Part shown: one piece after another, positions 139 through 62,912 of the stretch | Position numbering within the stretch: position 1 is the stretch's first letter | Layout of the letters: each line of letters begins with the position of its first letter | Source: an uncultured Gammaproteobacteria bacterium | GTDB taxonomy: Bacteria; Patescibacteriota; Microgenomatia; UBA10105; UBA927 | Assembly (NCBI GenBank): GCA_964596355.1 | Contig: CAZQTD010000003.1 | Coordinates: forward strand, 20,500-84,499 | DNA length: 64,000 nucleotides | Direction of reading: 5' to 3' | The notes under the pieces: model-generated | The model's input: the letters and a program-made list of their open reading frames with translations, nothing else | Databases searched by the model: none | What the model was told of the DNA's origin: nothing | Made by a program: the position numbers and the translations under genes

Positions 139-1998
139 TTGAGCTTGGTCAATCGTTTTGTTATGATGGGAACGATGAATAACAGAGAAATTGCGCAATT
201 GCTTCGCAAGGTCGCTGCCGCGTATCTGATTCTTAATGACAACCGTTTTAAAATTATTGCGTATGAACGGGCCGCAGACAGCATTGAGCACGCAACAAGC
301 GAAGTGAAGGATCTGTGGGATGAGGGCAAGTTGGGAGATATTCCCGGAGTGGGAGATCAACTCAAGCGTCACCTCGATGAGCTTTTTCGAACCGGCAGAG
401 TGAAGCATTTTGAAACAGTGGTAAACCGCCTGCCTGCGTCGCTTTACCCGCTTCTTCTGGTTCCCGGCATCGGGCCTAAAAAAGCGTACAAACTCGTCAC
501 GGAACTGAAGTTGCGCAATGAAAAGACAGTGATTGATGATCTGGCGAAGGCGGCAAAAGCTAATAAAATTGCTTCTTTGGAGGGTTTCGGCGATAAATCT
601 CAATTCGATATTTTAGCCAACATTGAATCGTATAAACGCGGGCAGATAAAAGAAAACCGCATGGCGTTACCTGAAGCGGACGCGATCGCTCAAGACGTGA
701 TGAAGTATCTAACAGCGTTGCCTTGCGTTGCGCGTGTAGATGCGCTCGGCAGTCTTCGGAGGCAGGTGTCGACAATCGGCGACATTGATATTTCTGTAGC
801 GACCGACAAGCCGCAAGACGTCATTAAACATTTTGTGAACTACCCGCATCAGAAAGTCATTGAAAACGGTCCGACCGGAGCGTCATTGCTTTTGAAAAAC
901 GGAAGACAGGTGGATGTGCGCGTGCAGCACCCCAAGGCGTACGGCGCGATGCTCCAGTACTTCACTGGCTCCAAGCACCACAACATTAAGCTGCGCGAAT
1001 ATGCGCTTGCCAAGGGTCTGTCGTTAAGTGAACACGGTATTAAACCAATACGAAAAGCTTCCAGAATCACACATCCGGCATTACAGTACAACAGGGAGAA
1101 AAAGCTTTATGAATGTGCTTTGGAAGAGGACGTATATAAAGCCGTAGGTCTTCCGTGGATTTCGCCGGAAATTCGGGAAGACAAAGGAGAAATAGAGGCC
1201 GCGCGTTCGCACACATTGCCTCATCTGATAACCCGTGAGGATATCAAGGGAGATGTGCACGTGCATACAAGTTACAACTTGGAATCCTCACATGATGTGG
1301 GCGAAGATGATGTCATTGCATGTCTGAATCAAGCGGCGACATTGGGATATGAATACATCGGCGTCAGCGACCACAACCCAAGCGTTGGTACCCATACTGA
1401 AAAACAAATTGTAGATATAATGAAGCGACGAAAGGATTTTTATGAACATAAATATTACTCATGGGTACAAAAAGTATCCAATAAACAGAAAATAACGCGC
1501 TTGTTCATTATGTGCGAGGTTGATATTCTTTCTGACGGAACACTGGCATTGCCAAATCCGGCATTCGATTTTGTCGATGCTGTCATTGTTTCTGTTCATT
1601 CCGGCTTCATGCTTGATAAAACGTCAATGACTCGGCGTGTCGTGCGCGCCCTGACGGCACACCCAAAAGTGCGCGTCTTCGGCCATCCGACAGCTCGGCT
1701 TCTGGGTAAGCGCGAGGGCATCGAGCTTGACTGGAGAGAAATTTTTGCGGTATGCAAAGACAGGCACATCGCACTTGAAATCAATGCGTATCCCCAGCGA
1801 CTGGATTTGCCTGATACGATTGTCTTTGACGCGCGTCGGGAGGGTGTCGCGTTTTGCATTAACACAGATTCGCATGCGGTGGAGCAGATGAGGTATATGA
1901 ACTATGGCGTATCTGTCGCCCGTCGCGGTTGGGCTCAAAAAGATGATGTGGTTAACACAATGGAGTATAATAAGTTTAAGAAGTGGCTCGTACAATAA
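139..1998 (+). CDS. polX: DNA polymerase/3'-5' exonuclease PolX (Pol-beta-like nucleotidyltransferase with helix-hairpin-helix motifs, C-terminal PHP phosphoesterase domain)
   Basis: N-terminus MNNREIAQLLRKVAAAYLILNDNRFKIIAYERAA is typical of PolX. GIGPKKAYKLV HhH motif. PHP motifs HVHTSYN...SDHN...HP. The true start may be the internal ATG near 175. Confidence 0.8.
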   Translation: MSLVNRFVMMGTMNNREIAQLLRKVAAAYLILNDNRFKIIAYERAADSIEHATSEVKDLWDEGKLGDIPGVGDQLKRHLDELFRTGRVKHFETVVNRLPASLYPLLLVPGIGPKKAYKLVTELKLRNEKTVIDDLAKAAKANKIASLEGFGDKSQFDILANIESYKRGQIKENRMALPEADAIAQDVMKYLTALPCVARVDALGSLRRQVSTIGDIDISVATDKPQDVIKHFVNYPHQKVIENGPTGASLLLKNGRQVDVRVQHPKAYGAMLQYFTGSKHHNIKLREYALAKGLSLSEHGIKPIRKASRITHPALQYNREKKLYECALEEDVYKAVGLPWISPEIREDKGEIEAARSHTLPHLITREDIKGDVHVHTSYNLESSHDVGEDDVIACLNQAATLGYEYIGVSDHNPSVGTHTEKQIVDIMKRRKDFYEHKYYSWVQKVSNKQKITRLFIMCEVDILSDGTLALPNPAFDFVDAVIVSVHSGFMLDKTSMTRRVVRALTAHPKVRVFGHPTARLLGKREGIELDWREIFAVCKDRHIALEINAYPQRLDLPDTIVFDARREGVAFCINTDSHAVEQMRYMNYGVSVARRGWAQKDDVVNTMEYNKFKKWLVQ

Positions 1999-4988: not shown

Positions 4989-5741
4989 TTGAGAGATATG
5001 AACTACAGATTGAATATTGCGTGGCTTTACCCCGATCTTATGAGTACTTACGGAGACCGCGGGAACGTGATCGTGCTTAAAAACCGCTGCATTTGGCGCG
5101 GGATTGATGCCGCCATCATCCATGTTACGCTTGAGACGTCTTTAAGACTTCTGCGCGCGTGTGACATTATTTTTATGGGTGGAGCGCAGGACCGGCAGCA
5201 GAAGCTTGCAAGCCATGACTTTTTGGGAAACAAAGCGCCGGTTATTAAAGACATGGTGGAAAGAGGTGTGCCCGCTCTTTTTGTCTGCGCCGCGTACCAG
5301 TTTGTTGGACACTTCTATCGACCATATAAAGGGGCTGTAATTCCGGGAGCTGGCATCTTTGATCTGGCTACCCATCACCCCGGAGATCAGGCAAAGCGCT
5401 TAATAGGCAATGTGGTCGCCGAGCTTATTCACCCCGCTGAACTCAAGGGCAAAACCGTCGTTGGGTTTGAAAATCATGGAGGGAGAACGAAATTAGGTCT
5501 AGCGATGCAACCGCTTGCCCGAGTAATTAAAGGGAATGGCAACAATGGACAGGATGGATTTGAAGGCGCGGTGTACAAAAATTCCATCGGCAGTTACTTC
5601 CACGGCCCTCTTCTTCCTAAAAATCCTCATGTAGCAGATTGGCTGATTGCGAAATCATTAGAAGTTAAATACAAAAAAGCGATACAATTAACGCCGCTTG
5701 ACGATGCGTTGGAATGGAAAGCACATAAATCAGTACTATAG
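4989..5741 (+). CDS. gatD: Lipid II isoglutaminyl synthase glutaminase subunit GatD (CobB/CobQ-type glutamine amidotransferase)
   Basis: N-terminus LNIAWLYPDLMSTYGDRGNVIVLK and catalytic Cys context FVCAAYQF. Sits directly downstream of murT. Confidence 0.75.
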   Translation: MRDMNYRLNIAWLYPDLMSTYGDRGNVIVLKNRCIWRGIDAAIIHVTLETSLRLLRACDIIFMGGAQDRQQKLASHDFLGNKAPVIKDMVERGVPALFVCAAYQFVGHFYRPYKGAVIPGAGIFDLATHHPGDQAKRLIGNVVAELIHPAELKGKTVVGFENHGGRTKLGLAMQPLARVIKGNGNNGQDGFEGAVYKNSIGSYFHGPLLPKNPHVADWLIAKSLEVKYKKAIQLTPLDDALEWKAHKSVL

Positions 5742-5792
5742 GAACCTTTAAAGGTCCGACCCTGCAAGGTGTCTATAGGGTATAATGTGAGT

Positions 5793-6503
5793 ATGGCAGA
5801 TGAGGAAGTTCAAGATCTTCGACAAGAACTATCATTTCTGTATCGCGTCGTCCAGAGCGTACATAGCCTTGAACTTGCGGAGGTTCTTAAGCAAATTGTG
5901 GATGTTGCCTACACGGCAACGAAAGCAGATTCGGTACTTGTTTACATAGTAGATCCCAAAAAACAGCAACTAGTGTTGAGAGCGTCAAAGAATCCCCGCG
6001 AGAACTTGTTTCATAAAATAACCATGAAAATGGGAGAAGGAATTACCGGGTGGGTGGCGCGTGAAAAGAAGGCTGTGGCAATTTCAGCTGGGGCCAATAA
6101 GGATCCACGGTTTAAATTTTTCCGGAGTCTCCCCGAGGACACGTTTGAAGCGTTTTTATCCGTCCCGATTATCAATAAACGCGGCGTCGTGGGGGTCATC
6201 AACGTGCAGCACGAAAAACCGCATACACACACGCGAATGGAAGTTAACTTACTTACCGCAATTGGTAAATTGGTGGGCGGTGCGGTGGAAAACGCACTGC
6301 TCATTGAGGAAACGCTCGCACTGAAGGACGCGCTTATTCTGCGCAAACTTATCGAAAAGGCAAAGGGGATTTTGATGAAGCGTCGGGGGCTTACGGAAGA
6401 ACAAGCGTTTTCGATGCTGCAAAAGCAAAGCATGAATTCCGGCAAGTCAATGAAGGATATCGCTGACGCCGTTATCACCGTAGACGCACTGCAGCTTCGC
6501 TGA
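5793..6503 (+). CDS. GAF-domain sensor fused to a C-terminal ANTAR RNA-binding antiterminator domain
   Basis: The C-terminal LILRKLIEKAKGILMKRRGLTEEQAFSMLQKQSMNSGKSMKDIADAVI matches the ANTAR helix pattern. The N-terminal ~150 aa are GAF-like. A TATAAT hexamer (5781-5786) lies 6 nt before the ATG at 5793, so the mRNA is probably leaderless. The track start at 5769 is a GTG. Confidence 0.8.
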   Translation: MADEEVQDLRQELSFLYRVVQSVHSLELAEVLKQIVDVAYTATKADSVLVYIVDPKKQQLVLRASKNPRENLFHKITMKMGEGITGWVAREKKAVAISAGANKDPRFKFFRSLPEDTFEAFLSVPIINKRGVVGVINVQHEKPHTHTRMEVNLLTAIGKLVGGAVENALLIEETLALKDALILRKLIEKAKGILMKRRGLTEEQAFSMLQKQSMNSGKSMKDIADAVITVDALQLR

Positions 6504-8482: not shown

Positions 8483-9909
8483 AACACCTTCGTACACTCA
8501 CGCTTGTTAAAGCAGTTACGTTACTTAAGGCGAAAGAAATTTCGCATGAGCAATTGTACGATGACATATTTGAAGCAATAGAGAAAGACAACGCATACTT
8601 GAATATCTATTTGTCGCTTAACAAAACCGCGCGCAAAGATGCAGAATTTCAGCTAGATACACCACTCGCCGGTGTCCCTATAGCGGTGAAGGACAATTTT
8701 CTTACTATTGGATTACCAACAACCGCATCTGCCAAACTCCTTGATGGATTTATGCCGCCATACGAATCCACCGTGACGGATCGGGTGAAAAAAAAAGGAG
8801 GCATTATTCTTGGGAAGACCAACATGGATGCATGGGCGCATGGAAGTAGCACGGAAACGAGCGATTTTGGCCCGACGAAAAATCCCCTAAATCCCTCACA
8901 CGTGCCCGGCGGTTCGTCTGGAGGAAGTGCCGCGGCAGTTGCCTCAAATACATGCATTGCAGCGCTCGGGACGGAAACAGCCGGGTCTATTCGCGTTCCC
9001 GCATGTTGGTGTGGTGTGGTAGGATTAAAGCCAACGTACGGTCGGGTTCCGCGCACCGGAATTGTGGCAATGGGATCTTCGCTTGATAGCCCGGGACCGA
9101 TAACAAAAACTGTAGAAGATGCAGCGCTTCTTTTCACTATTATCGCGGGAAAAGACCCGTATGATGCCACGTCAATCGATAGACCTGTTGGCGATTGTGT
9201 CGCGAATCTCAAAAAGGGAGTAAAAGGGTTTCGTATTGGGATTTGTTACATGGATTATCCAAATCTAAAAAATCGGCAGGTTGCTTCATCGGTTGAGCGC
9301 GCGGGCAAAGTGCTTGAATCGCAGGGAGCGATCGTTGACATGATTCCGCTATCCCAAACATTAAAGCCTCATGCGATATTAACTCCTGATTACGCGATCG
9401 GTGTCTATACGGTTATTCAGCGAAGTGAAGTTTCAAGCAACCTCGCTCGGTATGATGGCGTTCGCTACGGTTTCGATAGGTTGCAGTTTGGCGCAGAAGC
9501 CAAAAGGAGAATCATACTTGGGACATTTACACTTTCTAAAGGCTACGCGGATAAATACTATGTGATGGCTCAAAAGGTCCGTAATCTCTATATACAAAAT
9601 TTTCAGCAGCTGTTTTCTACCTATGACATTCTTCTTTCCACACCTACTCCCGGAGTGGCACTCAAGCTTGGTGAAAGCGAAGGCAATCCGATGTTTGGAG
9701 AGCTTATTGATGTTCTCAACGAGCCCAGTTCGCTTGCAGGGATCACAGCCGTCAGCATCCCGTGTGCATGGGATGATACTACGGGCCTACCGCTTGGTCT
9801 TGCATTAATGGGTAATTACTGGCAAGAAGAAAAGGTGTTGCGAACCGCTTATGTCTGTGAACAGAGCTTCAGGGGAAATCCATGGGTATCCGGCTCCTTG
9901 GGAGCATGA
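8479..9909 (+). CDS. gatA: Asp-tRNA(Asn)/Glu-tRNA(Gln) amidotransferase subunit A (amidase)
   Basis: Amidase signature GGSSGGSAAAVA and its position in the gatCAB order. Confidence 0.9.
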   Translation: MKHLRTLTLVKAVTLLKAKEISHEQLYDDIFEAIEKDNAYLNIYLSLNKTARKDAEFQLDTPLAGVPIAVKDNFLTIGLPTTASAKLLDGFMPPYESTVTDRVKKKGGIILGKTNMDAWAHGSSTETSDFGPTKNPLNPSHVPGGSSGGSAAAVASNTCIAALGTETAGSIRVPACWCGVVGLKPTYGRVPRTGIVAMGSSLDSPGPITKTVEDAALLFTIIAGKDPYDATSIDRPVGDCVANLKKGVKGFRIGICYMDYPNLKNRQVASSVERAGKVLESQGAIVDMIPLSQTLKPHAILTPDYAIGVYTVIQRSEVSSNLARYDGVRYGFDRLQFGAEAKRRIILGTFTLSKGYADKYYVMAQKVRNLYIQNFQQLFSTYDILLSTPTPGVALKLGESEGNPMFGELIDVLNEPSSLAGITAVSIPCAWDDTTGLPLGLALMGNYWQEEKVLRTAYVCEQSFRGNPWVSGSLGA

Positions 9910-9917
9910 GGAATATA

Positions 9918-11255
9918 ATGACGTACGAACCGATCATTGGACTTGAAATACACGTTGAATTGAAAACCAAATCAAAGATGTTTTGCGGGTGCAAAAACGA
10001 TCCCTTTTTTGCACCGAAGCCTAACATCTATACGTGCCCTGTTTGTTTAGGGTTGCCAGGCGGTTTGCCAGTGCCAAACAAAAAAGCTGTCGAGTGGACG
10101 ATTATGTTGGGTTTAGCGCTCGGTTGCACCGTTAATCTTGAATCCAAATTTGATCGGAAGCACTATTTTTACCCAGATCTCCCCAAGGGATATCAAATTT
10201 CGCAACATGATATACCTCTTTGTCGAAACGGAGTCATCCATCTTCCCTCACGTGACGTGCGTATCCATCGTGTACACTTGGAAGAGGATACGGGAAAACT
10301 CCTTCATGCCACTATTGATGGCAAAAGGGCGACGTTGGTTGATTTTAATAGAAGCGGTGTCCCGCTACTTGAAATTGTTACCGAACCGGATATTCGAAGC
10401 GCTGACGAAGCAAAAGAGTTTCTTAAGAAACTCCATCACATCATTCGGTGGTTAGATATCTCTGATGCCGATATGGAAAAGGGCAGTATGAGGTTAGAGC
10501 CGAATATATCAGTGAGAAACGTACCAAGCAAAACGCTATTGCCTCCATATAAAGTTGAAGTAAAGAATATTAATTCCTTTCGGTTTGTGAAGAAGGCCAT
10601 AGATTATGAAGTGAATCGACATATCAGATTGCTTGAAGAAGGACAATTGCCCCTTCAGGAAACTCGCGGGTGGGACGAGAAGAAAGGTATAACGTTTAGT
10701 CAACGGCATAAAGAGCACGCTGATGATTATCGCTACTTCCCAGAGCCGGATATCCCACTGATGCGGTTTACTGAAGCAGAAATATCGAACCTCAAATTTT
10801 ACATTCCAGAACTGCCTGACGCGAAAAAAGCGAGATTTGTACAGGAGTATGGATTATCTGACATTGAAGCTGCCCAAATGACAGAAACAGTTGCTCGTGC
10901 GAACTATTTTGAGTCGGCTGTCCGCGCCGCGGAAAACGGCGAATTCACAAAGATACCTGTAACGCCCAAACTGGTTGCCAATTGGATAATAAACAGGAAG
11001 ATCGAAGAATCCATGGAGCCTGCACAATTGATTGCCGAAATAGCCAAATCGCAAGCGGTGGAAGAAGTATCCGATGATGTTGTCCAGACAGCAATAGGTA
11101 CTGTTTTTGCCGCCAATCCAAAGGCCGTTGCTGACTTCAGGGCCGGCAAAGAAAAAGTTAAAATGTTTCTCTTTGGCAATGTTCTGCGGGAACTTAAAGG
11201 GAAAGGGAATAAAAGGAGAATAATGGGGTTGCTTGAGCAGAGGCTTGCTTCTTAG
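9918..11255 (+). CDS. gatB: Asp-tRNA(Asn)/Glu-tRNA(Gln) amidotransferase subunit B
   Basis: N-terminus YEPIIGLEIHVEL. Start set to the ATG at 9918 after the SD. Confidence 0.9.
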   Translation: MTYEPIIGLEIHVELKTKSKMFCGCKNDPFFAPKPNIYTCPVCLGLPGGLPVPNKKAVEWTIMLGLALGCTVNLESKFDRKHYFYPDLPKGYQISQHDIPLCRNGVIHLPSRDVRIHRVHLEEDTGKLLHATIDGKRATLVDFNRSGVPLLEIVTEPDIRSADEAKEFLKKLHHIIRWLDISDADMEKGSMRLEPNISVRNVPSKTLLPPYKVEVKNINSFRFVKKAIDYEVNRHIRLLEEGQLPLQETRGWDEKKGITFSQRHKEHADDYRYFPEPDIPLMRFTEAEISNLKFYIPELPDAKKARFVQEYGLSDIEAAQMTETVARANYFESAVRAAENGEFTKIPVTPKLVANWIINRKIEESMEPAQLIAEIAKSQAVEEVSDDVVQTAIGTVFAANPKAVADFRAGKEKVKMFLFGNVLRELKGKGNKRRIMGLLEQRLAS

Positions 11256-11274
11256 ACAAGATAACGGTCTTGTT
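11255..11274 (+). terminator. Weak hairpin GACAAGA-TAACGG-TCTTGTT overlapping the gatB stop
   Basis: Seen directly. The U-tract is poor. Confidence 0.25.
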
Positions 11275-11297
11275 ACTATGATTTAAAACATAGTAAC
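11272..11297. promoter_or_regulatory. 26-bp palindrome GTTACTATGATTTAAAACATAGTAAC (one mismatch to perfect), 10 nt upstream of the dnaE ATG; candidate operator
   Basis: Near-identical perfect palindrome copy at 46402-46427 upstream of tdk. Confidence 0.5.
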
Positions 11298-11307
11298 GAG
11301 AAATAAT

Positions 11308-14300
11308 ATGGCAGATTTTGTCCATCTTCATACGCACAGCGAGTATTCGCTCCTCGACGGCTTAGGGAAGCTTGATCAGTTGATTGAACGGGCCAAGTCA
11401 TTTGGCATGGATGCGCTTGCCGTTACTGATCACGGCGCGATGTACGGAAGCTTCAAGTTTTACCTCAAAGCCAAAGCCGCGGGAATCAAGCCGATTCTTG
11501 GAGTTGAGACGTATGTTGCAAGGAGAAGCAGGTTTGATAAGGAAGCAAAAATTGATACAGACCCGTATCATTTGCTCCTTCTTGCCAAAAGCGAGACAGG
11601 GTACAAGAACCTCATGAAGCTTGTCACCTATGCGCACTTGGAGGGCTATTATTATAAGCCGCGTATCGACTGGGAACTTCTGACCAAGTATCACGAGGGG
11701 ATTGTTTGCACGAGCGCATGCATTCAAGGCGAGGTGCCGTCTCTTTTGCGGGAGGGTAAAGAGAAAGAGGCAGAAGAAACAGCCAGACGCTATGCCGAGT
11801 TGTTCGGCGTCGATCATTATTATATCGAACTGCAACGTCACCCGAAAATTGCGGAAATAGACCAGATCAACGCCAAACTCGTGAAGCTTTCGCGCAAGCT
11901 CGGTCTGCCGCTTGTGGCAACCAACGACATCCATTACGTGGACCCGCAGGATGCTGAAGCGCAGGAAATTCTGCTCTGCGTACAGACGCAGCGGACAATT
12001 CTTGACAAAGATCGGCCGCTGACGATGATTGACTCGCCGGATTTTTACATGCGTTCTCCCGAGGAGATGAAGGGGTTGTTTATCCAGTATCCCGAGGCGA
12101 TAGAGAATACGGTGAAAATTGCGCGCATGTGTGATGTGACGCTGTCGGTTGGCAAGTGGATTTTGCCGGAGTATCCGCTTGAAGCAGGCGAAACACTCGC
12201 CACGTACTTAAAAAAGCTTATTACTGATCGGGTAAAGGCAAAGTATCCCAATCCGACCAAAGAAATTAACGATCGGATTGCCTACGAACTGGATATTATC
12301 AACAAAAAAGGATATTCAACGTACTTTCTCATTGTATCTGATTTTGTTAACTGGGCGAAAGATCACGGTATTGCTGTTGGCCCCGGCCGCGGGTCAGCGG
12401 CTGGATCTGTAATTTCCTACATTCTTAATATCACGGGAATTGATCCGTTGTTCTTTAATCTGCCGTTTGAACGCTTTCTTAATCCATCGCGTCCAAGTCC
12501 GCCGGACATTGATTTGGATTTTGCAGATGACCGGCGAGACGAGGTGATTAAATACGTTACCGAAAAATACGGTGAAGATAAAGTTGCGCAAATTATCACG
12601 TTTGGCACCATGGAGGCAAAAGGAGCTGTCCGCGACGCGGGCAGAGCGCTCGGTATGCCGTATTCTGGGCCGGACCGGATTAGCAAGATGATTCCGGCAG
12701 GGTTTCAGGGGAGCGCGATGACAATAGACAAGGCGCTGCAGCAGTCGCCGGAGCTTGCTCTTGCGTATCAATCTGAACCCGAAACAAAGCGGCTTTTGGA
12801 TGTCGCGCGAAAACTTGAGGGGGTTGCTCGTCACGCGTCGGTCCATGCCGCAGGCGTTGTCATCGCTGACAAACCGCTTGTGGAATATACACCGCTTCAA
12901 AAAGAGTCAAAGGGTGAACGGATCGTGACACAGTACGACATGTATACGGTTGGAGAAGACGGTGTGGGGCTTCTCAAGATGGATTTTTTGGGACTGCGGA
13001 ACCTCACCATTATTTCTCAAGCATTGCGATTTATTAAGGATGTGACGGGGAAGACGCTTGATCTGCAAGCGATTCCGCTCATTGATAAAAAAACGTATGA
13101 GATGCTCTCGCTGGGCGAAACAACCGGCGTGTTTCAGCTTGAATCTGCGGGAATGCGCAGGTATATCAAAGAGCTTAAGCCCACAAATATTTTTGATCTC
13201 ATGGCGATGGTTGCGCTGTTTCGACCCGGACCCATGCAGGTTATTCCGGAGTTTATCCGAAGGAAGCACAATCCTTCGCTTATAACCTATCCGGATCGGC
13301 GACTGAAAGATGTACTAAAACAGTCGTACGGTATTATCGCATATCAGGATGACGTCCTCTTGACGGCCATTACGCTCGCCGGATATTCGTGGGGCGACGC
13401 AGATAAACTGCGCAAGGCAGTCGGCAAAAAAATTCCATCCGAAATGAAGAAGCAAAAGGAAAAGTTTATTGACGGTTGCGTGGCAAATGGCCTTACGCGT
13501 CAAAAAGCGGAAGTCATTTTTAATCTCATTGAGCCGTTTGCCGGCTACGGATTTAATAAAGCTCATGCCGCGTGCTACGCGATGATTGCATATCAGACTG
13601 CCTACCTTAAAGCTAATTATCCGGTAGAATTTATGACCGCAGTTTTGACTGCAGAATCCCGCGCAAATACAGGACCGGCACGCGACGACAAAATTTCGAT
13701 GATGGTCGCCGAGTGCAGGCGAATGAATATTGCGCTTTTGCCTCCGGATATTAACGCATCGGGAGTAGAATTTACGATCGAAGAGACGCAGCCTGCTGGC
13801 AGGCGCGCGATACGCTTTGGGCTTTCGGCGATCAAAAACGTCGGCGAGGCGGCAATTGAGGCCATCCTTGCGGCCCGCAGGGATAAACCGTTCGTAAGCT
13901 TGGGCGATTTTATGGCGCGCGTAGATCTGTCTAAGGTCAACAGGAAGACTCTTGAAAGCTTGATAAAGGCCGGAGCAATGGATGGGTTTGGAACGCGCGC
14001 GGCAATGCTCCTTTACGTACCGTTGGCCATTGATCTTGCACATAAACACAAGAAGCAGGCAGCAGCCGGACAAGTAGGACTATTTGAAGAAGCAAATGTC
14101 GCACACAGAGCCATGGACGCGCTTCCTCGTGTTGCCGAGTGTCCACAATCAGAGCTATTGGCGTGGGAAAAAGAACTCCTTGGATTTTATCTCACAACCC
14201 ACCCGCTTGAGCCTCATATAAAACTGCTTTCTGGCGTTGGAGCGGTACCTCTTGGGCAAATGACCGTAGAACACGTAGGGCAGCGAGTGACAGTTGCCGG

Positions 14301-14550
14301 GATTGTCGTTAACGTCAAAAAAATAACCACAAAGGCAGGCAACAACGAAATGGCATTCGTCAAAGTGGAAGATATGACAGGAAACGTGGAGCTGGTAGTT
14401 TTTCCAAAAATTTATATACGGACCATGGATATGTGGCGGTCGGATGTTGTAGTCCAGGTGATGGGCAAGGTGGACGAAAAAGATGATCGTTTGACGATTC
14501 TTGTCGATGACGCATCGGTTCTGGTATCCGTTAGAGACAATGGAGGTTGA
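11308..14550 (+). CDS. dnaE: DNA polymerase III alpha subunit
   Basis: N-terminal PHP domain HLHTHSEYSLLDG. 1080 aa. C-terminal OB fold. Confidence 0.9.
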   Translation: MADFVHLHTHSEYSLLDGLGKLDQLIERAKSFGMDALAVTDHGAMYGSFKFYLKAKAAGIKPILGVETYVARRSRFDKEAKIDTDPYHLLLLAKSETGYKNLMKLVTYAHLEGYYYKPRIDWELLTKYHEGIVCTSACIQGEVPSLLREGKEKEAEETARRYAELFGVDHYYIELQRHPKIAEIDQINAKLVKLSRKLGLPLVATNDIHYVDPQDAEAQEILLCVQTQRTILDKDRPLTMIDSPDFYMRSPEEMKGLFIQYPEAIENTVKIARMCDVTLSVGKWILPEYPLEAGETLATYLKKLITDRVKAKYPNPTKEINDRIAYELDIINKKGYSTYFLIVSDFVNWAKDHGIAVGPGRGSAAGSVISYILNITGIDPLFFNLPFERFLNPSRPSPPDIDLDFADDRRDEVIKYVTEKYGEDKVAQIITFGTMEAKGAVRDAGRALGMPYSGPDRISKMIPAGFQGSAMTIDKALQQSPELALAYQSEPETKRLLDVARKLEGVARHASVHAAGVVIADKPLVEYTPLQKESKGERIVTQYDMYTVGEDGVGLLKMDFLGLRNLTIISQALRFIKDVTGKTLDLQAIPLIDKKTYEMLSLGETTGVFQLESAGMRRYIKELKPTNIFDLMAMVALFRPGPMQVIPEFIRRKHNPSLITYPDRRLKDVLKQSYGIIAYQDDVLLTAITLAGYSWGDADKLRKAVGKKIPSEMKKQKEKFIDGCVANGLTRQKAEVIFNLIEPFAGYGFNKAHAACYAMIAYQTAYLKANYPVEFMTAVLTAESRANTGPARDDKISMMVAECRRMNIALLPPDINASGVEFTIEETQPAGRRAIRFGLSAIKNVGEAAIEAILAARRDKPFVSLGDFMARVDLSKVNRKTLESLIKAGAMDGFGTRAAMLLYVPLAIDLAHKHKKQAAAGQVGLFEEANVAHRAMDALPRVAECPQSELLAWEKELLGFYLTTHPLEPHIKLLSGVGAVPLGQMTVEHVGQRVTVAGIVVNVKKITTKAGNNEMAFVKVEDMTGNVELVVFPKIYIRTMDMWRSDVVVQVMGKVDEKDDRLTILVDDASVLVSVRDNGG

Positions 14551-45777: not shown

Positions 45778-46362
45778 TTACTTGGCCCAGCAGTTCCTGC
45801 ACCGCGCCTCGTACGCGTCGGTGCGGCCCACGAGCTCGGGATCGGCTTCAAGTGGGTTAATGCGTGCCGTACTGTTGGTAATACGCTTATGGAAGAGAGC
45901 CTCTTCTCCGCACAGTGTGCAAATTGCAGAAAGCTTGGTGGCTTTATCAGCCAAGGCCAAAAGCGCAGGGACAGGTACAAACGGTTGCCGATCGTATGTC
46001 ATGGCTAATCCCGACACAATCACGTGTTTTCCCGCATCCACAAGTTTCATAACCGCGGAAACAAGCTCCTTGCCAAACCACTGCGCTTCATCTATGGCAA
46101 CGACTTCGGTATCCGGTCGCACACGCGCAAGTATTTGCTTTGCGCTTCGTACAAGTTCTGATTCAAAGCTTATGCCGGCATGGGAAAATATCTTGCGGTC
46201 TTTGCCATAGCGCGTATCGATGGCATGCTTAAAGACTTGTACCCGCTTCTTTGCGATCGTGGCGCGTTTGACTTGACGGATGAGCTCTTCAGTTTTACCG
46301 CAGTACATAGGGCCGGCGATGACTTCCAAATATCCGCGGTTCCGTTTCACAGTTTGCTTCAT
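45778..46362 (-). CDS. tdk: Thymidine kinase
   Basis: P-loop GPMYCGKTEEL and C-terminal zinc ribbon CTLCG...CRNC. Start set at the ATG (MKQTVK). The track start at 46398 is a GTG. Confidence 0.85.
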   Translation of the reverse strand: MKQTVKRNRGYLEVIAGPMYCGKTEELIRQVKRATIAKKRVQVFKHAIDTRYGKDRKIFSHAGISFESELVRSAKQILARVRPDTEVVAIDEAQWFGKELVSAVMKLVDAGKHVIVSGLAMTYDRQPFVPVPALLALADKATKLSAICTLCGEEALFHKRITNSTARINPLEADPELVGRTDAYEARCRNCWAK

Positions 46363-46401
46363 AGCTTTAAGTATATACCGACGACAGTCTGTGTGCACGA
46401 T

Positions 46402-46427
46402 GTTACTATGTTTTAAAACATAGTAAC
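46402..46427. promoter_or_regulatory. Perfect 26-bp palindrome GTTACTATGTTTTAAAACATAGTAAC upstream of tdk; second copy of the dnaE-upstream element
   Basis: Seen directly. Reverse complement is identical. Confidence 0.5.
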
Positions 46428-46466
46428 AGGGGTGATTTTGATATTGTTCGTATTATTTTCGTTATA

Positions 46467-46495
46467 TTGACACTTTTATTCGGGTTTTTTACGAT
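46467..46495 (+). promoter_or_regulatory. Promoter TTGACA-17-TACGAT, 8 nt upstream of the ATG at 46504 (leaderless-type)
   Basis: Hexamers and spacing. Confidence 0.4.
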
Positions 46496-46503
46496 AACTT
46501 CGT

Positions 46504-46758
46504 ATGCCGGAAGTTATTGATGAATCCATTTCCGTTGATCTTCTTAGCAACCACATGAAAGGCACAGCGTACCCGTGGATCATCCATTGGCGGGGGAATC
46601 GGTACATGATAACCAACGTCGGCCTCCATTACACGACGCGTGAAGGTAGGACGCTGATTCACATATTCTCCGTCACCGATGGCAACACGTTCTTTAAGCT
46701 CCGGTTTAATACCGAGAATCTGGGGTGGAAATTGCTGGAAATAGACACAATAAATTAA
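46504..46758 (+). CDS. Hypothetical 84-aa protein upstream of dinB (strand uncertain; an overlapping 97-aa ORF exists on the minus strand at 46489-46782)
   Basis: The plus-strand ORF has a consensus promoter and a more protein-like composition. No motif recognised. Confidence 0.35.
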   Translation: MPEVIDESISVDLLSNHMKGTAYPWIIHWRGNRYMITNVGLHYTTREGRTLIHIFSVTDGNTFFKLRFNTENLGWKLLEIDTIN

Positions 46759-46837
46759 CCCAATTGATCTAATTGACCACATGTTTAAGCAAATTCCAAT
46801 TTCCCAATGTAAGTATTGGCGCTTATTTTAGAATAAT

Positions 46838-48163
46838 ATGGATTTTGCCTCCGAGTTTCCCACCATCATGCACATAGATCTCAATTCGTGCTTTGCCACG
46901 ATTGAACAGCAGGCAAATCCGCTTCTGCGGGGCAAACCTGTGGCTGTAGCGGCATACACGACGAGCCGCGGGTGTATTCTAGCCGCGTCAACGGAAGCCA
47001 AGCGTTTGGGAGTCAAAACCGGCATGCGGGTAATCGACGGCAGGACGCTTGTACCGCGCCTAGTTGTCCTTCCGCCGGATCCGGAGAAATACCGATGGGT
47101 GAATCAAAAACTTCAGATCCTGCTTGGCTCCTATACGCCATATTGTTCGATTGAATCGATTGATGAAATCGTGATGGATGTCAAAATACACCGTCTCATT
47201 GCGCCATTGCTTCATGGTCAAAATAACCATGAAACCATGGAACCATGGAAGAATAATTTCTTGAATAATAGACGCATCATTGATGCCATGACGCGAATCG
47301 CTCAAGAGATTAAGAAGCGGATAAAAGCAGAGATTGGCGAGTGGTTGACTGTCTCCATTGGTATTGCGCCCAACCGGTATCTGGCGAAAGTTGCCTCTGG
47401 CCTCCATAAACCGGATGGGCTGGACGTCATTACCAAAGAAACGATCACGCCGGTTTTTGAACGTTTGACTCTTGAGGATCTCTGCGGCATCAAGCAGGGG
47501 ATAGCCAATCGCCTGCGCGCAAGCGGCATTACGACGCCGGTTGCGATGCTTGCCGCTCCTGCGCAGACACTTGTGCGGGCGCTTAACTCCATAACCGGTT
47601 ACCACTGGTGGCGTCGGCTTCATGGGTACGAAGACGGCGTGGTGTATAAGAAGTTAGACAAAGAGAAAGAGGTCCGGCAAAAGACATTTGGTCAATCGTT
47701 TGCCCTTGGAATAGCGCATATGCCGACACAAGCCGCGACACTGCAAATTCTTTCTCAACTCGTTGCCAAAATGGGAAGACGGCTTCGCAGAAATGGCTTT
47801 ACCGCCCGCGGCGTAGGAGTATCGCTCCTTTTTACCGACGGGAGCCACTGGCATGAGCAAAAAATGGTGCATGGCCATCTTTTTGCCGATGGCGACTTTT
47901 ACTGTCTCGCCGGTGAAATGCTTGCTCACGCCCCAGCGCGTTTGATACGGACGTTAGCGATAACAACCTATAAACTGACGCATGATCTGTATGCGCAGGA
48001 AAGCCTGCTTGCTGAAGAGCAGAGGAAACGGCGCATCACCCAGACTCTTGATGCAGTCCATGATCGCTTTGGCGAGCGAATTGTGATCACCGGCAGAATG
48101 CTTCGGATGGAGCAAAGGGTAGTAGATAGAATTGCCTTTGGCAGGGCAAGGGAACTGGTGTAG
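46838..48163 (+). CDS. dinB: DNA polymerase IV (Y-family translesion polymerase)
   Basis: N-terminus IMHIDLNSCFATIEQQANPLLRGKPVAV and the catalytic-core pattern. Confidence 0.85.
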   Translation: MDFASEFPTIMHIDLNSCFATIEQQANPLLRGKPVAVAAYTTSRGCILAASTEAKRLGVKTGMRVIDGRTLVPRLVVLPPDPEKYRWVNQKLQILLGSYTPYCSIESIDEIVMDVKIHRLIAPLLHGQNNHETMEPWKNNFLNNRRIIDAMTRIAQEIKKRIKAEIGEWLTVSIGIAPNRYLAKVASGLHKPDGLDVITKETITPVFERLTLEDLCGIKQGIANRLRASGITTPVAMLAAPAQTLVRALNSITGYHWWRRLHGYEDGVVYKKLDKEKEVRQKTFGQSFALGIAHMPTQAATLQILSQLVAKMGRRLRRNGFTARGVGVSLLFTDGSHWHEQKMVHGHLFADGDFYCLAGEMLAHAPARLIRTLAITTYKLTHDLYAQESLLAEEQRKRRITQTLDAVHDRFGERIVITGRMLRMEQRVVDRIAFGRARELV

Positions 48164-48175
48164 AATGCGCGTGAT

Positions 48176-49387
48176 ATGACTGACTACCGGCCGCTTGCTG
48201 ACATCCTTAGACCCCAAACGCTGGATGACGTCATAGGGCAGAAGCATCTCGTGGGGAAGAACGGCATAATACGCAGAGTGCTGGCGTCGGGCTTTCTCCC
48301 CTCGATGATTTTCTGGGGTCCTCCCGGCTGCGGAAAAACCACGCTTGCGCATGTGTTAGCCTCTTCAACAGTTGCACATTTTGAGGCGCATTCTGCCGTC
48401 ACGGCGTCTCTGACCGATGTGCGCCGCGTGGTGAAACAGGCCGCTGAACGGCGTAAAACCGGCAAACAAACCGTGTTGTTCATAGATGAAATTCACCGGT
48501 TTAATAAGGCGCAGCAGGACGCGCTTCTACCGCATGTGGAAAAGGGAACCGTGATTTTTATAGGCGCAACCACGGAAAATCCATCGTTTGAGGTCGTTTC
48601 GCCGCTTTTGTCGCGGGTACGCGTATTGGTTCTCAATCCGCTTGACGATCAAGAACTCAATGCTGTTATCGACCGCGGCCTCGCGTATCTTAAGAGAACG
48701 CTTGATATTGAAGCCAGGAAGTTTTTGCTTAGCGCGGCAAACGGCGACGCAAGAAGCGCACTTACTATTCTTGAAATTGCGGCACAATTTAAATCGAGCC
48801 AGATGTCGAAAACAAAAGCGCGTAATCCAAACGCCATATCCGTTCAAGACATTGAAGAAGCTGCGCAGCGAAAAATGCTTCAGTATGATCGTGGCGGAGA
48901 AGAGCATTACAACACAATGAGCGCGTTTATTAAATCCATGCGCGCGGGCGATGTGGACGCGGCGCTTTATTATTTAGCTCGCATGGTAGATGCCGGGGAA
49001 GATCCGCTGTTTATCGCTCGACGAATGGTGGTGTTTGCGTCGGAAGACATTGGGGTTGCTCAACCCACAGCTCTCGTTGTTGCCAACGCGGTATTTGACG
49101 CGTGCCACACAATCGGCTACCCGGAGTGTCAGGAAAATCTTGCGCACGGCGTGGTTTATCTTTGTCTTGCAAAAAAAGATCGGAGTGCCTACGATGCCTA
49201 TATACAAGCTCTTGGTGATGTTAAAAAATACGGAAACCTTCCGATTCCGCTTGTCATCAGAAATGCGCCGACCAAGCTCATGAAGGAGCTACACTACGGC
49301 AAAGGATACAATTACTACCCTATAGAAAGTCTGTTACCTGATAAAATAAAGGGAAAGACGTACTATAAAAGGAGTCAACTCGCGTGA
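48176..49387 (+). CDS. rarA: Replication-associated recombination protein A (AAA+ ATPase RarA/MgsA)
   Basis: Walker A WGPPGCGKTTLAH, Walker B FIDEIHRF, C-terminal MgsA helical domain. Confidence 0.85.
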   Translation: MTDYRPLADILRPQTLDDVIGQKHLVGKNGIIRRVLASGFLPSMIFWGPPGCGKTTLAHVLASSTVAHFEAHSAVTASLTDVRRVVKQAAERRKTGKQTVLFIDEIHRFNKAQQDALLPHVEKGTVIFIGATTENPSFEVVSPLLSRVRVLVLNPLDDQELNAVIDRGLAYLKRTLDIEARKFLLSAANGDARSALTILEIAAQFKSSQMSKTKARNPNAISVQDIEEAAQRKMLQYDRGGEEHYNTMSAFIKSMRAGDVDAALYYLARMVDAGEDPLFIARRMVVFASEDIGVAQPTALVVANAVFDACHTIGYPECQENLAHGVVYLCLAKKDRSAYDAYIQALGDVKKYGNLPIPLVIRNAPTKLMKELHYGKGYNYYPIESLLPDKIKGKTYYKRSQLA

Positions 49388-60120: not shown

Positions 60121-60744
60121 TTATACAAATTTTCGGATGAGTCCAACGACTTTTCCCTGAATTTTGACGTGCGTGGTAAATATTGGCGACATCGTTGCGT
60201 TGGCAGGGGCGAGTTTAATTCGTTGCTTTTCAAAATAAATGCGCTTAAGCGTGGCAAGTCCGTTTGGCAAAAGCGCAACGACGATATCGCCGTTTTGCGC
60301 GTCTGTTTGATGTTGTACCACGACATAATCTCCATCCAAAATACCGTCCTCAACCATGGATTGACCTTTGACTTGCAACACGTAGCTGGGTTTATTTCCG
60401 GCAATCATGCCCGGAGCAACGGAAATGTAGAAATTCGGATCAGTGTACGGTTCAAGCGGCGCGCCGGCGGCAATGAAGCCCAGGACAGGAAGCTCAACTG
60501 CCGTCGTCCCTGCTCCAGATTTATATTTATCCTCGACGACCTCCAGCCCTCGCGCAGTGCCGTCAAGTTTTTTAATGAATCCTTTTTCCCGAAGTCGCGC
60601 AATGTGCTCATGAACCGTCGCGGCGGAATTCATGCCAAGCGCATCGCCAATTTCCTTAAGCGTCGGCGCATAGCCGAATCGCTGGATAAATTGCGTAATA
60701 AATTCAATGATCTGTCGTTCTTTGGTATACAGTGTGGGCGGCAT
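60121..60744 (-). CDS. lexA: LexA repressor (S24 peptidase)
   Basis: N-terminal wHTH then catalytic GQSM...K dyad region (VKGQSMVEDGILDGDYVVV...LKR). Confidence 0.85.
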   Translation of the reverse strand: MPPTLYTKERQIIEFITQFIQRFGYAPTLKEIGDALGMNSAATVHEHIARLREKGFIKKLDGTARGLEVVEDKYKSGAGTTAVELPVLGFIAAGAPLEPYTDPNFYISVAPGMIAGNKPSYVLQVKGQSMVEDGILDGDYVVVQHQTDAQNGDIVVALLPNGLATLKRIYFEKQRIKLAPANATMSPIFTTHVKIQGKVVGLIRKFV

Positions 60745-60808
60745 ATGCGCTGTGTGACTAAAGCTTCACGGCTTACCACTCAATCAATGGCACGTTCTTT
60801 TTTTAGCC

Positions 60809-60838
60809 GAATATGTGATATGATCATATTGAGTATTC
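60809..60838. promoter_or_regulatory. Dyad-symmetric element GAATAT-gtg-ATATGATCATAT-tga-GTATTC in the lexA/uvrB divergent region; candidate SOS operator
   Basis: 12-bp perfect palindromic core (60818-60829) flanked by matching outer arms. Confidence 0.4.
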
Positions 60839-60853
60839 CAAATAAAAACCGAA

Positions 60854-60881
60854 TTGTCAATACATCGAAACACGGTATAAA
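60854..60881 (+). promoter_or_regulatory. uvrB promoter TTGTCA-16-TATAAA
   Basis: Hexamers and spacing. Confidence 0.4.
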
Positions 60882-60902
60882 TAGATCACTATTAGACAAC
60901 CG

Positions 60903-62912
60903 ATGAAGCGTTTTACCCTTCAGTCACCATTTCAGCCCACAGGCGATCAACCAGAGGCGATCGCAGCGCTTGTACGCAATATACAGTGCGGGATGAAGGA
61001 GCAGGTTCTTTTAGGAGTTACCGGAAGCGGCAAAACATTCACGATCGCCAACGTTATTCAGGCCATACAAAAACCAGTACTTGTTATATCGCATAACAAG
61101 ACGCTTGCGGCTCAATTGTATCAGGAATTCCGTGACTTTTTTCCCGATAATGCGGTATCGTACTTTGTGTCCTACTACGACTACTACCAGCCCGAGGCAT
61201 ATATCCCCCAGACTGATACGTATATAGAAAAGGAAACACAGATTAATGAAGAAATCGATAAGCTCCGGCTTGCCGCAACGGCAAATCTTATGACGCGCCG
61301 CGACACGATTATCGTTGCGTCCGTTTCATGCATCTATACGATCGGGTCGCCCAAAGAGTATAGGCGGGCGGTTCTTGAGTTGAAAAAAGGCATGAGCATC
61401 GTAAGAGAAGGGGTGTTCGACCGTCTCGTGGCTTTGCAGTACGAACGACGCACCGATGGGTTTTATCGTGGAACATTTCGCGTGCGGGGCGACACCATTG
61501 ATATTTTCCCGGCGTACGATGACGCAGGTACGCGCGTTATTATCCGGAACGGTAGCGTTGTGGATTTGATGACCATAGACGCATTGACGGGAAAAACAGT
61601 AAAACAGAGATCATCAACTGTGATTTACCCTGCTAAGCACTACATGACGGATCCGCGCACCTATGAAAGCGTATTCGCTCGTATACAAGAGGATCTGAAC
61701 GTTCAGGTCGGCAAACTTCAGCAATCAGGAAAGATTCTTGAGGCACATCGGTTGCGGCAGCGTGTCAATCATGATCTGGAAATGATTCAGGAGCTCGGGT
61801 ACGTTAATGGCATAGAAAATTACTCGCGGTACTTCGACGGAAGAAAGCCAGGCGAGCCGCCCTATACGCTATTTGATTACTATCAAGAAGCAGTTGGTAA
61901 CGGTTGGCTGCTTGTTATCGATGAGTCTCACATGACGATACCGCAAATCCGCGGCATGTATAACGCAGACCGAAGCAGAAAACAGGTGCTTGTTGATTAC
62001 GGGTTCCGCCTGCCGGCCGCACTTGACAATCGGCCCCTTCGGTTTGAAGAATTTCTGCGCAGAATGCCGCAGACAATATATGTATCAGCGACGCCCGATG
62101 AGTGGGAAACAAGCAGGGTGGCTTCAAGAACCGGGATTGTCGAGCAGTTAATACGGCCAACAAGCCTTGTTGATCCCGAGGTTTCAGTTCGACCCATAAA
62201 TGGTCAAATAGCCGATTTGACCCGCGAAATACATAAGCGGGTTGCCAAGAAGGAGCGCACATTGGTTACCACGCTTACCAAGCAAATGGCAGAGGACCTT
62301 GCGAAGTTTTTGGAGGAAAAAGGCATTAACGTCCATTACCTTCACGCCGACGTTGAGACGCTTGAACGTACGGATATCCTCGCTGATCTTCGAAGCGGCA
62401 GGTATGACGTCATCGTTGGGGTAAACCTTTTGAGAGAAGGACTCGATTTACCCGAAGTATCGCTGGTGGCTGTATTAGACGCAGACAACGAAGGCTTTCT
62501 GCGCAGTAAAACAAGTCTTATTCAAACTATGGGACGCGCAGCGCGACATAGGTCCGGCAGAGTCATCTTGTATGCGGATAGGATGACAGCGTCTATTTCC
62601 CATGCAATAGAGGAGGTCAATCGCCGTCGCGGTGTTCAGCTTGCCTACAATACAACCCATGGGATTACTCCAGCGTCCGTTAAAAAACCGATTCGTGAAC
62701 GCTTGGTTGAGAAAGCAGCCGACAATTCAGAAAAGAGAAAAACGCCGCCTGAACTTTTCGGTGTTGACGCAACGTCAATTGAGTCAATGACCCCGCAGGA
62801 CAAAAAAAAGCTCATCATTCGACTCACACAAGCAATGCGTGACGCAAGCCGCGATCTAGACTTTGAGCTTGCGGCCCGCTTGAGGGATTTCATTGCGACA
62901 CTTTCATCATAA
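60903..62912 (+). CDS. uvrB: Excinuclease ABC subunit B
   Basis: Walker A GVTGSGKT, helicase motifs, C-terminal UvrB/UvrC interaction domain. Confidence 0.9.
   Translation: MKRFTLQSPFQPTGDQPEAIAALVRNIQCGMKEQVLLGVTGSGKTFTIANVIQAIQKPVLVISHNKTLAAQLYQEFRDFFPDNAVSYFVSYYDYYQPEAYIPQTDTYIEKETQINEEIDKLRLAATANLMTRRDTIIVASVSCIYTIGSPKEYRRAVLELKKGMSIVREGVFDRLVALQYERRTDGFYRGTFRVRGDTIDIFPAYDDAGTRVIIRNGSVVDLMTIDALTGKTVKQRSSTVIYPAKHYMTDPRTYESVFARIQEDLNVQVGKLQQSGKILEAHRLRQRVNHDLEMIQELGYVNGIENYSRYFDGRKPGEPPYTLFDYYQEAVGNGWLLVIDESHMTIPQIRGMYNADRSRKQVLVDYGFRLPAALDNRPLRFEEFLRRMPQTIYVSATPDEWETSRVASRTGIVEQLIRPTSLVDPEVSVRPINGQIADLTREIHKRVAKKERTLVTTLTKQMAEDLAKFLEEKGINVHYLHADVETLERTDILADLRSGRYDVIVGVNLLREGLDLPEVSLVAVLDADNEGFLRSKTSLIQTMGRAARHRSGRVILYADRMTASISHAIEEVNRRRGVQLAYNTTHGITPASVKKPIRERLVEKAADNSEKRKTPPELFGVDATSIESMTPQDKKKLIIRLTQAMRDASRDLDFELAARLRDFIATLSS

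Follow-up and report, generated by a model that had tools for sequence, protein, structure and literature searches.

The closest described counterparts of the element considered here are the operators of the amino-acid repressors TrpR and HisR. YerC is the histidine repressor HisR, and the operators of HisR and TrpR are palindromes of 20 bp; that of HisR reads cacTTTA-N6-TAAAgtg, and that of TrpR has the half-site GNACT with an 8-bp spacing (PMC9413887). Here we analysed a 26-bp palindrome that occurs twice in a 64,000-nucleotide stretch of contig CAZQTD010000003.1 (hereafter, the window), once between gatB and dnaE (copy 1) and once upstream of tdk (copy 2). The names carried by the homologues of an 84-aa protein encoded beside copy 2 assign the window to Candidatus Gottesmanbacteria, within the Candidate Phyla Radiation (CPR, or Patescibacteria). 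Transcriptional control in these bacteria is nearly unstudied, the LexA regulon being the only one analysed in the searchable literature. That literature, which does not cover Sanchez-Osuna et al. 2017, yielded no description of the palindrome or of a TrpR-family regulon in the CPR, and the arm sequences were found together only in papers unrelated to bacteria. We propose that the palindrome is the recognition site of a CPR TrpR-like regulator, which would control its own gene and lower the transcription of adjacent genes. We hold this explanation as a whole with moderate confidence and regard its core, that the TrpR-like protein binds the palindrome, as likely.

Both copies were found where an earlier note on this DNA had placed them (Table 1). 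Copy 1 carries a single mismatched central pair (A10/A17), starts 16 nt past the gatB stop and ends 10 nt ahead of the dnaE ATG; it therefore lies inside a co-directional array, the plus-strand order being glnA, gatC, gatA, gatB, copy 1, dnaE and the ATP-synthase cluster. Copy 2, a perfect palindrome, lies in a divergent spacer, 38 nt upstream of the minus-strand tdk ATG and, in the other direction, 76 nt upstream of the plus-strand 84-aa open reading frame (ORF). When up to 3 mismatches were allowed over the 18 arm positions, GTTACTATG-N8-CATAGTAAC was retrieved at these two sites only in the 64 kb, and none of 100 dinucleotide-preserving shuffles contained a match. Relaxed arm and half-site searches of the window for degenerate copies and half-sites identified nothing above chance. 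The sequences flanking one copy are unrelated to those flanking the other, and the repeated unit is therefore the 26 bp itself.

The palindrome is conserved well beyond the window. We scanned one genome per GTDB species for exact GTTACTATG-N8-CATAGTAAC and obtained 26 loci, and 63 further loci were obtained from metagenomes with the same pattern; related metagenomic contigs are not independent, and taxon names are those of the records. After duplicate removal there were 80 unique exact-arm sites, most of them on CPR contigs, with 2–4 exact copies per metagenome-assembled genome (MAG) in the genome scan. Eleven of the 26 genome loci were named as CPR (three Gottesmanbacteria MAGs, Paceibacterota, Woesebacteria, Curtissbacteria and "Patescibacteria group"). 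Another five (L017, L021, L024, L026 and L034; records CAYGFS01, CAYILS01, CAYHQC01 and CAYHEJ01) were labelled as uncultured Gammaproteobacteria or Pseudomonadales, but their extended sequence is as in the CPR and one of them, L034, carries the CPR-type regulator gene, 59% identical to the Gottesmanbacteria one. These labels are probably wrong, or the bins contaminated. The remaining 10 loci (Clostridium, Treponema, Ruminococcus and others) had unrelated centres and matched the number expected by chance, some resembling terminators or other sites, and they were set aside as chance or unrelated occurrences. Two of them, from rumen Treponema sp. MAGs (L015 7588-7613 and L025 307-332), have the same arms with a different shared centre, GTTACTATGTATAGATACATAGTAAC, and may represent an unrelated binding site sharing the arms by coincidence.

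The free central 8 bp read TTTCGAAA in 24 and TTTTAAAA in 21 of the 80 sites, the others being mostly one-step variants. The consensus was GTTACTATGTTTYRAAACATAGTAAC, frequently with an A/T extension on both sides, although most sites were ascertained by exact arms and the conservation of the arms is thus partly by construction. Relaxed searches of the fetched loci revealed variants such as GTTACCATG...CATGGTAAC, GATACCATG...CATGGTATC and GTTATCATG...CATGATAAC. In each half, positions 2, 6 and 10 are variable, whereas G1, T3, A4, T8, G9 and T11 are almost fixed. A half thus reads GNTAC-N3-GNTTY (in copy 1, GTTAC at 1–5 and GATTT/GTTTY at 9–13), and the whole site consists of four GNTWC units in an 8-bp phase, arranged head-to-head. 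Of 84 sites, 77 had a symmetric central base pair, and the CG and TA forms are linked by few CA/TG intermediates; since this pair could not form in a hairpin loop, its symmetry speaks more for a site read as duplex DNA than for an RNA stem-loop. In one sub-family of sites, the arms are kept around an asymmetric centre, GCA-CCTA-TGC (L063 7839-7864 and 8400-8425, L056 and L086), and another variant, with the centre TTCCGTTA, was seen in L106 and L108.

The only strongly recurrent neighbour of the sites was the gene for a Trp_repressor-family protein of about 147 aa (range about 143–172 aa), and the linkage is near-obligate. With a hidden Markov model run over all loci, we found 28 occurrences of this gene in 16 distinct contexts, of which 14 were flanked by the palindrome on both sides; in the other two, the contig ended right after the gene in one case and there was no site in the other. 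The site preceded the start of the gene in 15 of the 16 contexts, at 2–28 nt, or as far as 56 nt in divergent members. The same arrangement was recovered by homology only: among five TrpR-like loci fetched by protein similarity (42–61% identity), four had a palindrome ending 9–12 nt before the ATG and a second copy 5–36 nt after the stop, and the fifth had one copy, 563 nt downstream, past the next gene. In several genomes the gene occupies a conserved neighbourhood, with FtsK...YtxH upstream and alaS-sortase-PYNP-YceG downstream, and is therefore not obviously mobile. In L063, oppositely oriented copies of the asymmetric-centre site lie on either side of a divergent TrpR-like gene of 172 aa, which suggests co-evolution of protein and site.

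The TrpR-like protein matched PF01371 at 46–51 bits (gathering score 27) but fell below the curated cut-offs of both TIGR02531 (YerC/YecD; 31.5–34.6 versus 42.2 bits) and TIGR01321 (TrpR; 19–25 versus 67.25), and it therefore represents a distinct subfamily. We detected 98 homologues of about 147 aa, the named ones being from Gottesmanbacteria, Microgenomates and Patescibacteria. In comparisons of the protein profile with the PDB, the YerC/HisR-like structures 3FRW (4e-12), 3KOR (6e-11) and 3G1C (2e-9) were retrieved. An AlphaFold2 model (mean confidence, pLDDT, 80) contained eight helices and was matched by Foldseek with probability 1.00 to 3KOR, 3FRW, 3G1C and E. coli TrpR; the YerC/HisR-like structures matched best and E. 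coli TrpR next, including its tandem-binding complex 1TRR. The CPR protein has an extra C-terminal helical extension of about 45 aa beyond HisR/YerC. It is a helix-turn-helix (HTH) regulator devoid of nuclease, transposase or HUH domains. A second, shorter TrpR-family paralogue was found in L040 (7831-8079, +; E = 3.5e-14 against the CPR profile), with no palindrome nearby, and this could be a conventional HisR/YerC-like protein.

We therefore consider the following scheme. The PF01371 protein of about 147 aa, from the YerC/HisR-like branch and encoded outside the window, would bind the 26-bp palindrome, with two dimers covering 26–30 bp on the four GNTWC units; the 8-bp phase of these units recalls the tandem dimers of TrpR and, by analogy, suggests two dimers per site. 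By binding the flanks of its own gene the protein would be autoregulatory, as the position of the sites suggests, and it would also bind a small, lineage-variable set of intergenic regions, here the gatB-dnaE junction and the region upstream of tdk. The bound protein would lower transcription into the adjacent gene, either by occlusion of a promoter or start overlapping the palindrome or as a roadblock inside a polycistronic unit, and a small-molecule effector might modulate its binding. The conserved dyad, which is not due to chance, is of the sort read by dimeric or oligomeric DNA-binding proteins, as the earlier note had suggested, and has a candidate partner in the CPR TrpR-like protein, which in this scheme would act as a repressor.

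Several observations weigh against this scheme. No TrpR-like gene was found in the window by tblastn, although related loci carry it, and the site, at 26 bp, is longer than the 20 bp of the known operators of the family. With crude gene calls (longest-ORF heuristics at the scanned loci), 32 of the classifiable sites were placed between tandem, 9 between divergent and 8 between convergent genes, proportions equal to the background formed by all spacers of these loci (247, 84 and 66). Convergent placement was verified with Pfam for at least three sites, at rpoD/MFS (L048), RmuC/AAA_33 (L030) and TrpR-like/GNAT (L102), and between such genes there is no promoter to repress. Many spacers are barely longer than the palindrome (e.g., 6+26+6 nt) and therefore leave no room for a separate promoter. 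The search for a −35-like hexamer did not distinguish the 40 start-facing from the 47 end-facing orientations (mean 2.73 versus 2.47 matches, p = 0.10). In addition, the sites tend to be all-or-none, with little gradation, and variants frequently show symmetric alterations in both arms, as in GATACCATG...CATGGTATC; these symmetric variants and the central symmetry exceed what independent evolution of half-sites predicts. Finally, the genes next to the sites have no clear common theme.

Two other findings concern the relation of the sites to promoters. Copy 1 shows TAGACA-18-TATGAT, but a general arrangement with the −10 element inside the palindrome (TATGWT, positions 6–11) and a −35 element 16–18 nt upstream was not adopted, as its enrichment was not significant. 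A variant palindrome with the centre ATTTGAAT is located inside a YfhO-family membrane protein gene of Curtissbacteria (L028 7251-7276 = L044 1143-1168 = L067); this is one clear intragenic copy, and it is a misfit for a simple promoter operator. The earlier note had named two outcomes that would speak against a regulatory site, namely its restriction to the two copies without conservation in relatives and its membership of a small repeat or miniature-element family scattered independently of promoters. The first does not apply, the site being conserved in the CPR, whereas the second agrees in part with our data, in which the dispersal is blind to gene orientation and includes convergent sites.

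The identity of the neighbouring genes bears on the replication and deoxynucleotide (dNTP) supply regulon that the earlier note had proposed. The two genes themselves were correctly named: the 1080-aa DnaE reached 1353 bits with the NCBIfam replicative model NF005298 (cut-off 1260), and the tdk product matched PF00265 and NF003296. An identification of dnaE as the error-prone DnaE2/ImuC type was rejected, since the error-prone model was below its cut-off and the replicative model above it. The location of the thymidine kinase domain and a comparison with L002 and L108 make the ATG at 46363 the likeliest start of tdk. Across the CPR, however, the neighbours were heterogeneous. In three genomes, with 59–68% protein identity, the neighbour was rdgB/Ham1 followed by serS; at least two lineages had a Ser_hydrolase (PF06821) gene, and one species had a gene for an EamA transporter. 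Others included greA, alaS, tgt, an NrnA-like DHH phosphoesterase, RNase Y, GNATs, a cupin, an AAA_33 kinase, a nucleotidyltransferase, PrsW, FTCD_C, tRNA synthetases, dnaE, tdk and possibly tRNA genes. Nucleotide handling is represented by tdk, rdgB and DHH, with NUDIX and DHFR nearby, but the genes that the earlier note expected a motif search to uncover (nrd, dnaA, dnaN and tmk) were absent from the neighbours of the sites; nor were trp or his genes found beside any site. The upstream tdk site is retained in one relative, L108, as the variant palindrome GCTACTATGTTCCGTTACATGATAGC at the same position despite a diverged spacer, and is missing in L002 (whose spacer is 120 nt versus 140 nt in the window) and L109. 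One further gatB-dnaE junction was available, in the Woesebacteria-like L074, and it lacks the site. Given the heterogeneity of the neighbours, a replication/dNTP regulon is not supported, and neither is a replication-specific programme for the dnaE and tdk sites. In L092 (~5560-5640) and L086 (~190-260), a palindrome was seen by eye about 75–90 nt upstream of an opposite-strand tRNA gene, and tRNA genes may thus be among the site neighbours.

Among the alternatives to the TrpR-like operator, the one that survives best holds that the palindrome marks gene boundaries, as an element bound by the TrpR-like protein or extruded as a hairpin and acting in both directions as terminator, roadblock or insulator, or that it is a copying element akin to repetitive extragenic palindromic (REP) sequences, its associated gene being the self-flanked TrpR-like one, without any specific regulation of dnaE and tdk. 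The intergenic distribution, which is blind to orientation and equals the background, would be expected of such an element, as would the sites between verified convergent genes, the bracketing of the TrpR-like gene by two sites, also where a convergent gene follows it (L102), and the palindromes that part successive genes in L030/L043 and L102. The all-or-none presence of the site, as in the shorter L002 tdk spacer (by 20 nt), points in the same direction, and the joint change of both arms, with few intermediates between the CG and TA centres, fits a copy-and-paste spread. However, REPs occur in tens to hundreds of copies, versus 2–4 exact copies per MAG here, and the sequence is not species-specific but conserved in different CPR classes. 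The protein linked to it is an HTH regulator rather than a nuclease or transposase, its gene lies in a conserved chromosomal neighbourhood, and the site has been kept upstream of rdgB, tdk and Ser_hydrolase genes in different genomes. At either window copy there is no U-tract after the stem, nor any site resembling an intrinsic terminator. We consider gene-boundary marking unlikely, though less so than the remaining alternatives. A form of it in which the palindrome and the TrpR-like protein would constitute an undescribed CPR punctuation system, with protein-dependent bidirectional roadblocks or insulators at the gene boundaries of very compact genomes, irrespective of promoters and perhaps spread by copying, seems rather doubtful to us.

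The palindrome could also act once transcribed, as a stable hairpin near starts and stops that would tune translation initiation or the stability or processing of the mRNA, with no need for DNA binding. The hairpins predicted have energies of −14.5 to −17.1 kcal/mol with z-scores of −4.9 to −7.6, but any palindrome folds in this way. Many sites do end 2–26 nt before starts or lie 4–20 nt after stops, and copy 1 is within a co-directional gene array. However, the would-be loop (the central 4–8 nt) is as conserved and symmetric as the stem, on the coding strand asymmetric variants give rise to C-A mismatches and G-U wobbles with about equal frequency, and the primary sequence is kept across classes in the absence of stem-preserving turnover. 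There was no Rfam match, and the linkage with the TrpR-like gene would be left without explanation. We consider action as an RNA element improbable.

An operator of the lineage's LexA protein, controlling dnaE and the Y-family polymerase locus, can be dismissed as barely credible: it was prompted by the Y-family polymerase and rarA genes that share the intergenic region of copy 2, but it was rejected because the window contains lexA itself, separated from uvrB by a 158-nt spacer in which the palindrome is absent even when 3 mismatches are allowed, because the Y-polymerase operons of L002, L004 and L109 have no palindrome, because a separate element, TTCGG-N6-TTYGG, is common to the Y-polymerase promoter and the lexA-uvrB spacer, and because recA, lexA and uvrA number 0 among the 49 genes neighbouring CPR sites. 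In Bacillus subtilis, dnaE is under LexA control, and this had counted in its favour. The earlier note had likewise judged by eye that the motif was not a LexA box, and the absence of the palindrome from the lexA promoter region bears this out. A study by Sanchez-Osuna, Barbe and Erill from 2017 (Environ Microbiol 19:3465) is said to describe the Patescibacteria LexA regulon. It is cited in PMC8565304 and PMC7739468, in the latter together with two others for the evolution of direct-repeat recognition by LexA, which makes a direct repeat, and not this palindrome, the probable LexA motif of Patescibacteria. TTCGG-N6-TTYGG, which resembles a direct repeat and also occurs at 9972-9988 in both L002 and L004, is a candidate for the Gottesmanbacteria LexA box.

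The features of the window are collected in Table 1.

Table 1. Palindrome copies, genes and other elements located in the 64,000-nucleotide window
Feature	Position	Strand	Remark
PolX-type polymerase with PHP domain	139-1998	+	At the window start
GAF-ANTAR regulator	5769-6503	+	Just upstream of glnA
gatB	9882-11255	+	Last gene of the gatCAB run
Palindrome copy 1, GTTACTATGATTTAAAACATAGTAAC	11272-11297	.	Within the 52-nt gatB-dnaE spacer
dnaE (replicative DnaE1 type)	11308-14550	+	Directly downstream of copy 1, putative target
tdk (thymidine kinase)	45778-46363	-	Nearest gene to copy 2, putative target
Palindrome copy 2, GTTACTATGTTTTAAAACATAGTAAC	46402-46427	.	Perfect palindrome
Block ATTTCGTATTATTTTCG(W)TATATTGAC	46444-46472		Last bases fall in the −35 of the Y-polymerase promoter
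Promoter-like site TTGACA-17-TACGAT	46467-46495		Y-polymerase operon
TTCGG-N6-TTYGG	46479-46494	+	Y-polymerase promoter region
84-aa ORF/Y-family polymerase/rarA (mgsA) operon	46504-49387	+	Divergent from tdk across copy 2
84-aa protein	46504-46758	+	First ORF of the operon
Canonical lexA (LexA_DNA_bind + Peptidase_S24)	60121-60744	-	Divergent from uvrB
Spurious ORF	60169-60906	+	Masks lexA in a naive longest-ORF map
12-bp perfect palindrome, ATATGATCATAT	60818-60829		lexA-uvrB spacer
TTCGG-N6-TTYGG	60838-60853	-	lexA-uvrB spacer
uvrB	60903-62912	+	Divergent from lexA

The operon that faces copy 2, which the earlier note had not mentioned, is probably not under the control of the palindrome: it has its own promoter-like site and other conserved elements, and copy 2 sits 40 nt upstream of the −35. 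One of these elements, the block ATTTCGTATTATTTTCG(W)TATATTGAC, was present in four Gottesmanbacteria loci (the window, L002, L108 and L109), at ~9953-9980 in L108 and doubled in L002 (~9919-9946 and 9950-9963); in the L004 group, a repeated ATTGTAAAG takes its place. The 84-aa protein had no Pfam or NCBIfam match and is always encoded immediately upstream of the Y-family polymerase; its 104 homologues are apparently confined to Gottesmanbacteria and relatives, and it may be a polymerase accessory factor.

The near-invariant 26-bp site and the small regulator family provide a testable protein-DNA pair for mostly uncultured organisms. If the TrpR-like protein does act as proposed, the TrpR/HisR family would gain a 26-bp layout with four half-sites, together with target genes outside amino-acid biosynthesis. 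The bracketing of the regulator gene and the orientation-blind placement of the sites raise the possibility of roadblock control or punctuation in compact genomes. For annotation, the sites at dnaE and tdk should not be taken as evidence of an SOS or dNTP regulon.

In comparison with known systems, the Patescibacteria LexA regulon is the only transcription-factor regulon that we found described for the superphylum and it also concerns DNA-repair genes, but it depends on another protein family, and the lexA promoter in the window has no palindrome. The REP sequences and their associated tyrosine transposases (RAYT) share with the CPR element a short extragenic palindrome, an orientation-blind intergenic dispersal, a frequent location just past stops and a single protein gene between two copies. 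Nevertheless, the CPR element has very few copies and a sequence conserved in several classes, and the gene that it flanks encodes an HTH protein and not an HUH/Y1 transposase.

The similarities are closer with E. coli TrpR, which binds operators of the type TGTACTnGTnnACnAGTACA, also as tandem dimers (PDB 1TRR). The two proteins have a common fold (target-normalised TM-score of 0.62–0.77), TrpR is autoregulatory as we propose for the CPR protein, the GNTWC units of the CPR site recall the GNACT half-sites of TrpR in their 8-bp phase and free second position, and the CPR site contains the shared core TACT. However, the sequence similarity is marginal (E about 0.1–0.3; TIGR01321 24.7 versus 67 bits), the outer ACT/AGT cores of the CPR site are 14 bp apart rather than 8 bp, and the site neighbours are not aromatic amino-acid genes. 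Indeed, the regulon of amino-acid biosynthesis and transport typical of TrpR/HisR was not encountered among the neighbours of the CPR sites.

HisR (YerC/YecD), known from Firmicutes and other phyla, includes the nearest solved relatives (3G1C, 3KOR and 3FRW) and is likewise a small all-helical HTH protein with a palindromic operator and a site before its own gene. The CPR protein differs in remaining below the YerC/YecD cut-off and in having about 45 more residues at the C-terminus, the site is the 26-bp GTTACTATGTTTYRAAACATAGTAAC, no his genes adjoin, and its gene is flanked on both sides. We therefore suggest that the pair formed by the palindrome and the TrpR-like protein may extend the TrpR/HisR kind of repressor and operator as a distinct CPR form, the unusual traits of which are a 26-bp operator of four units, a C-terminal extension of the protein, a self-bracketed regulator gene and an orientation-blind placement of the sites.

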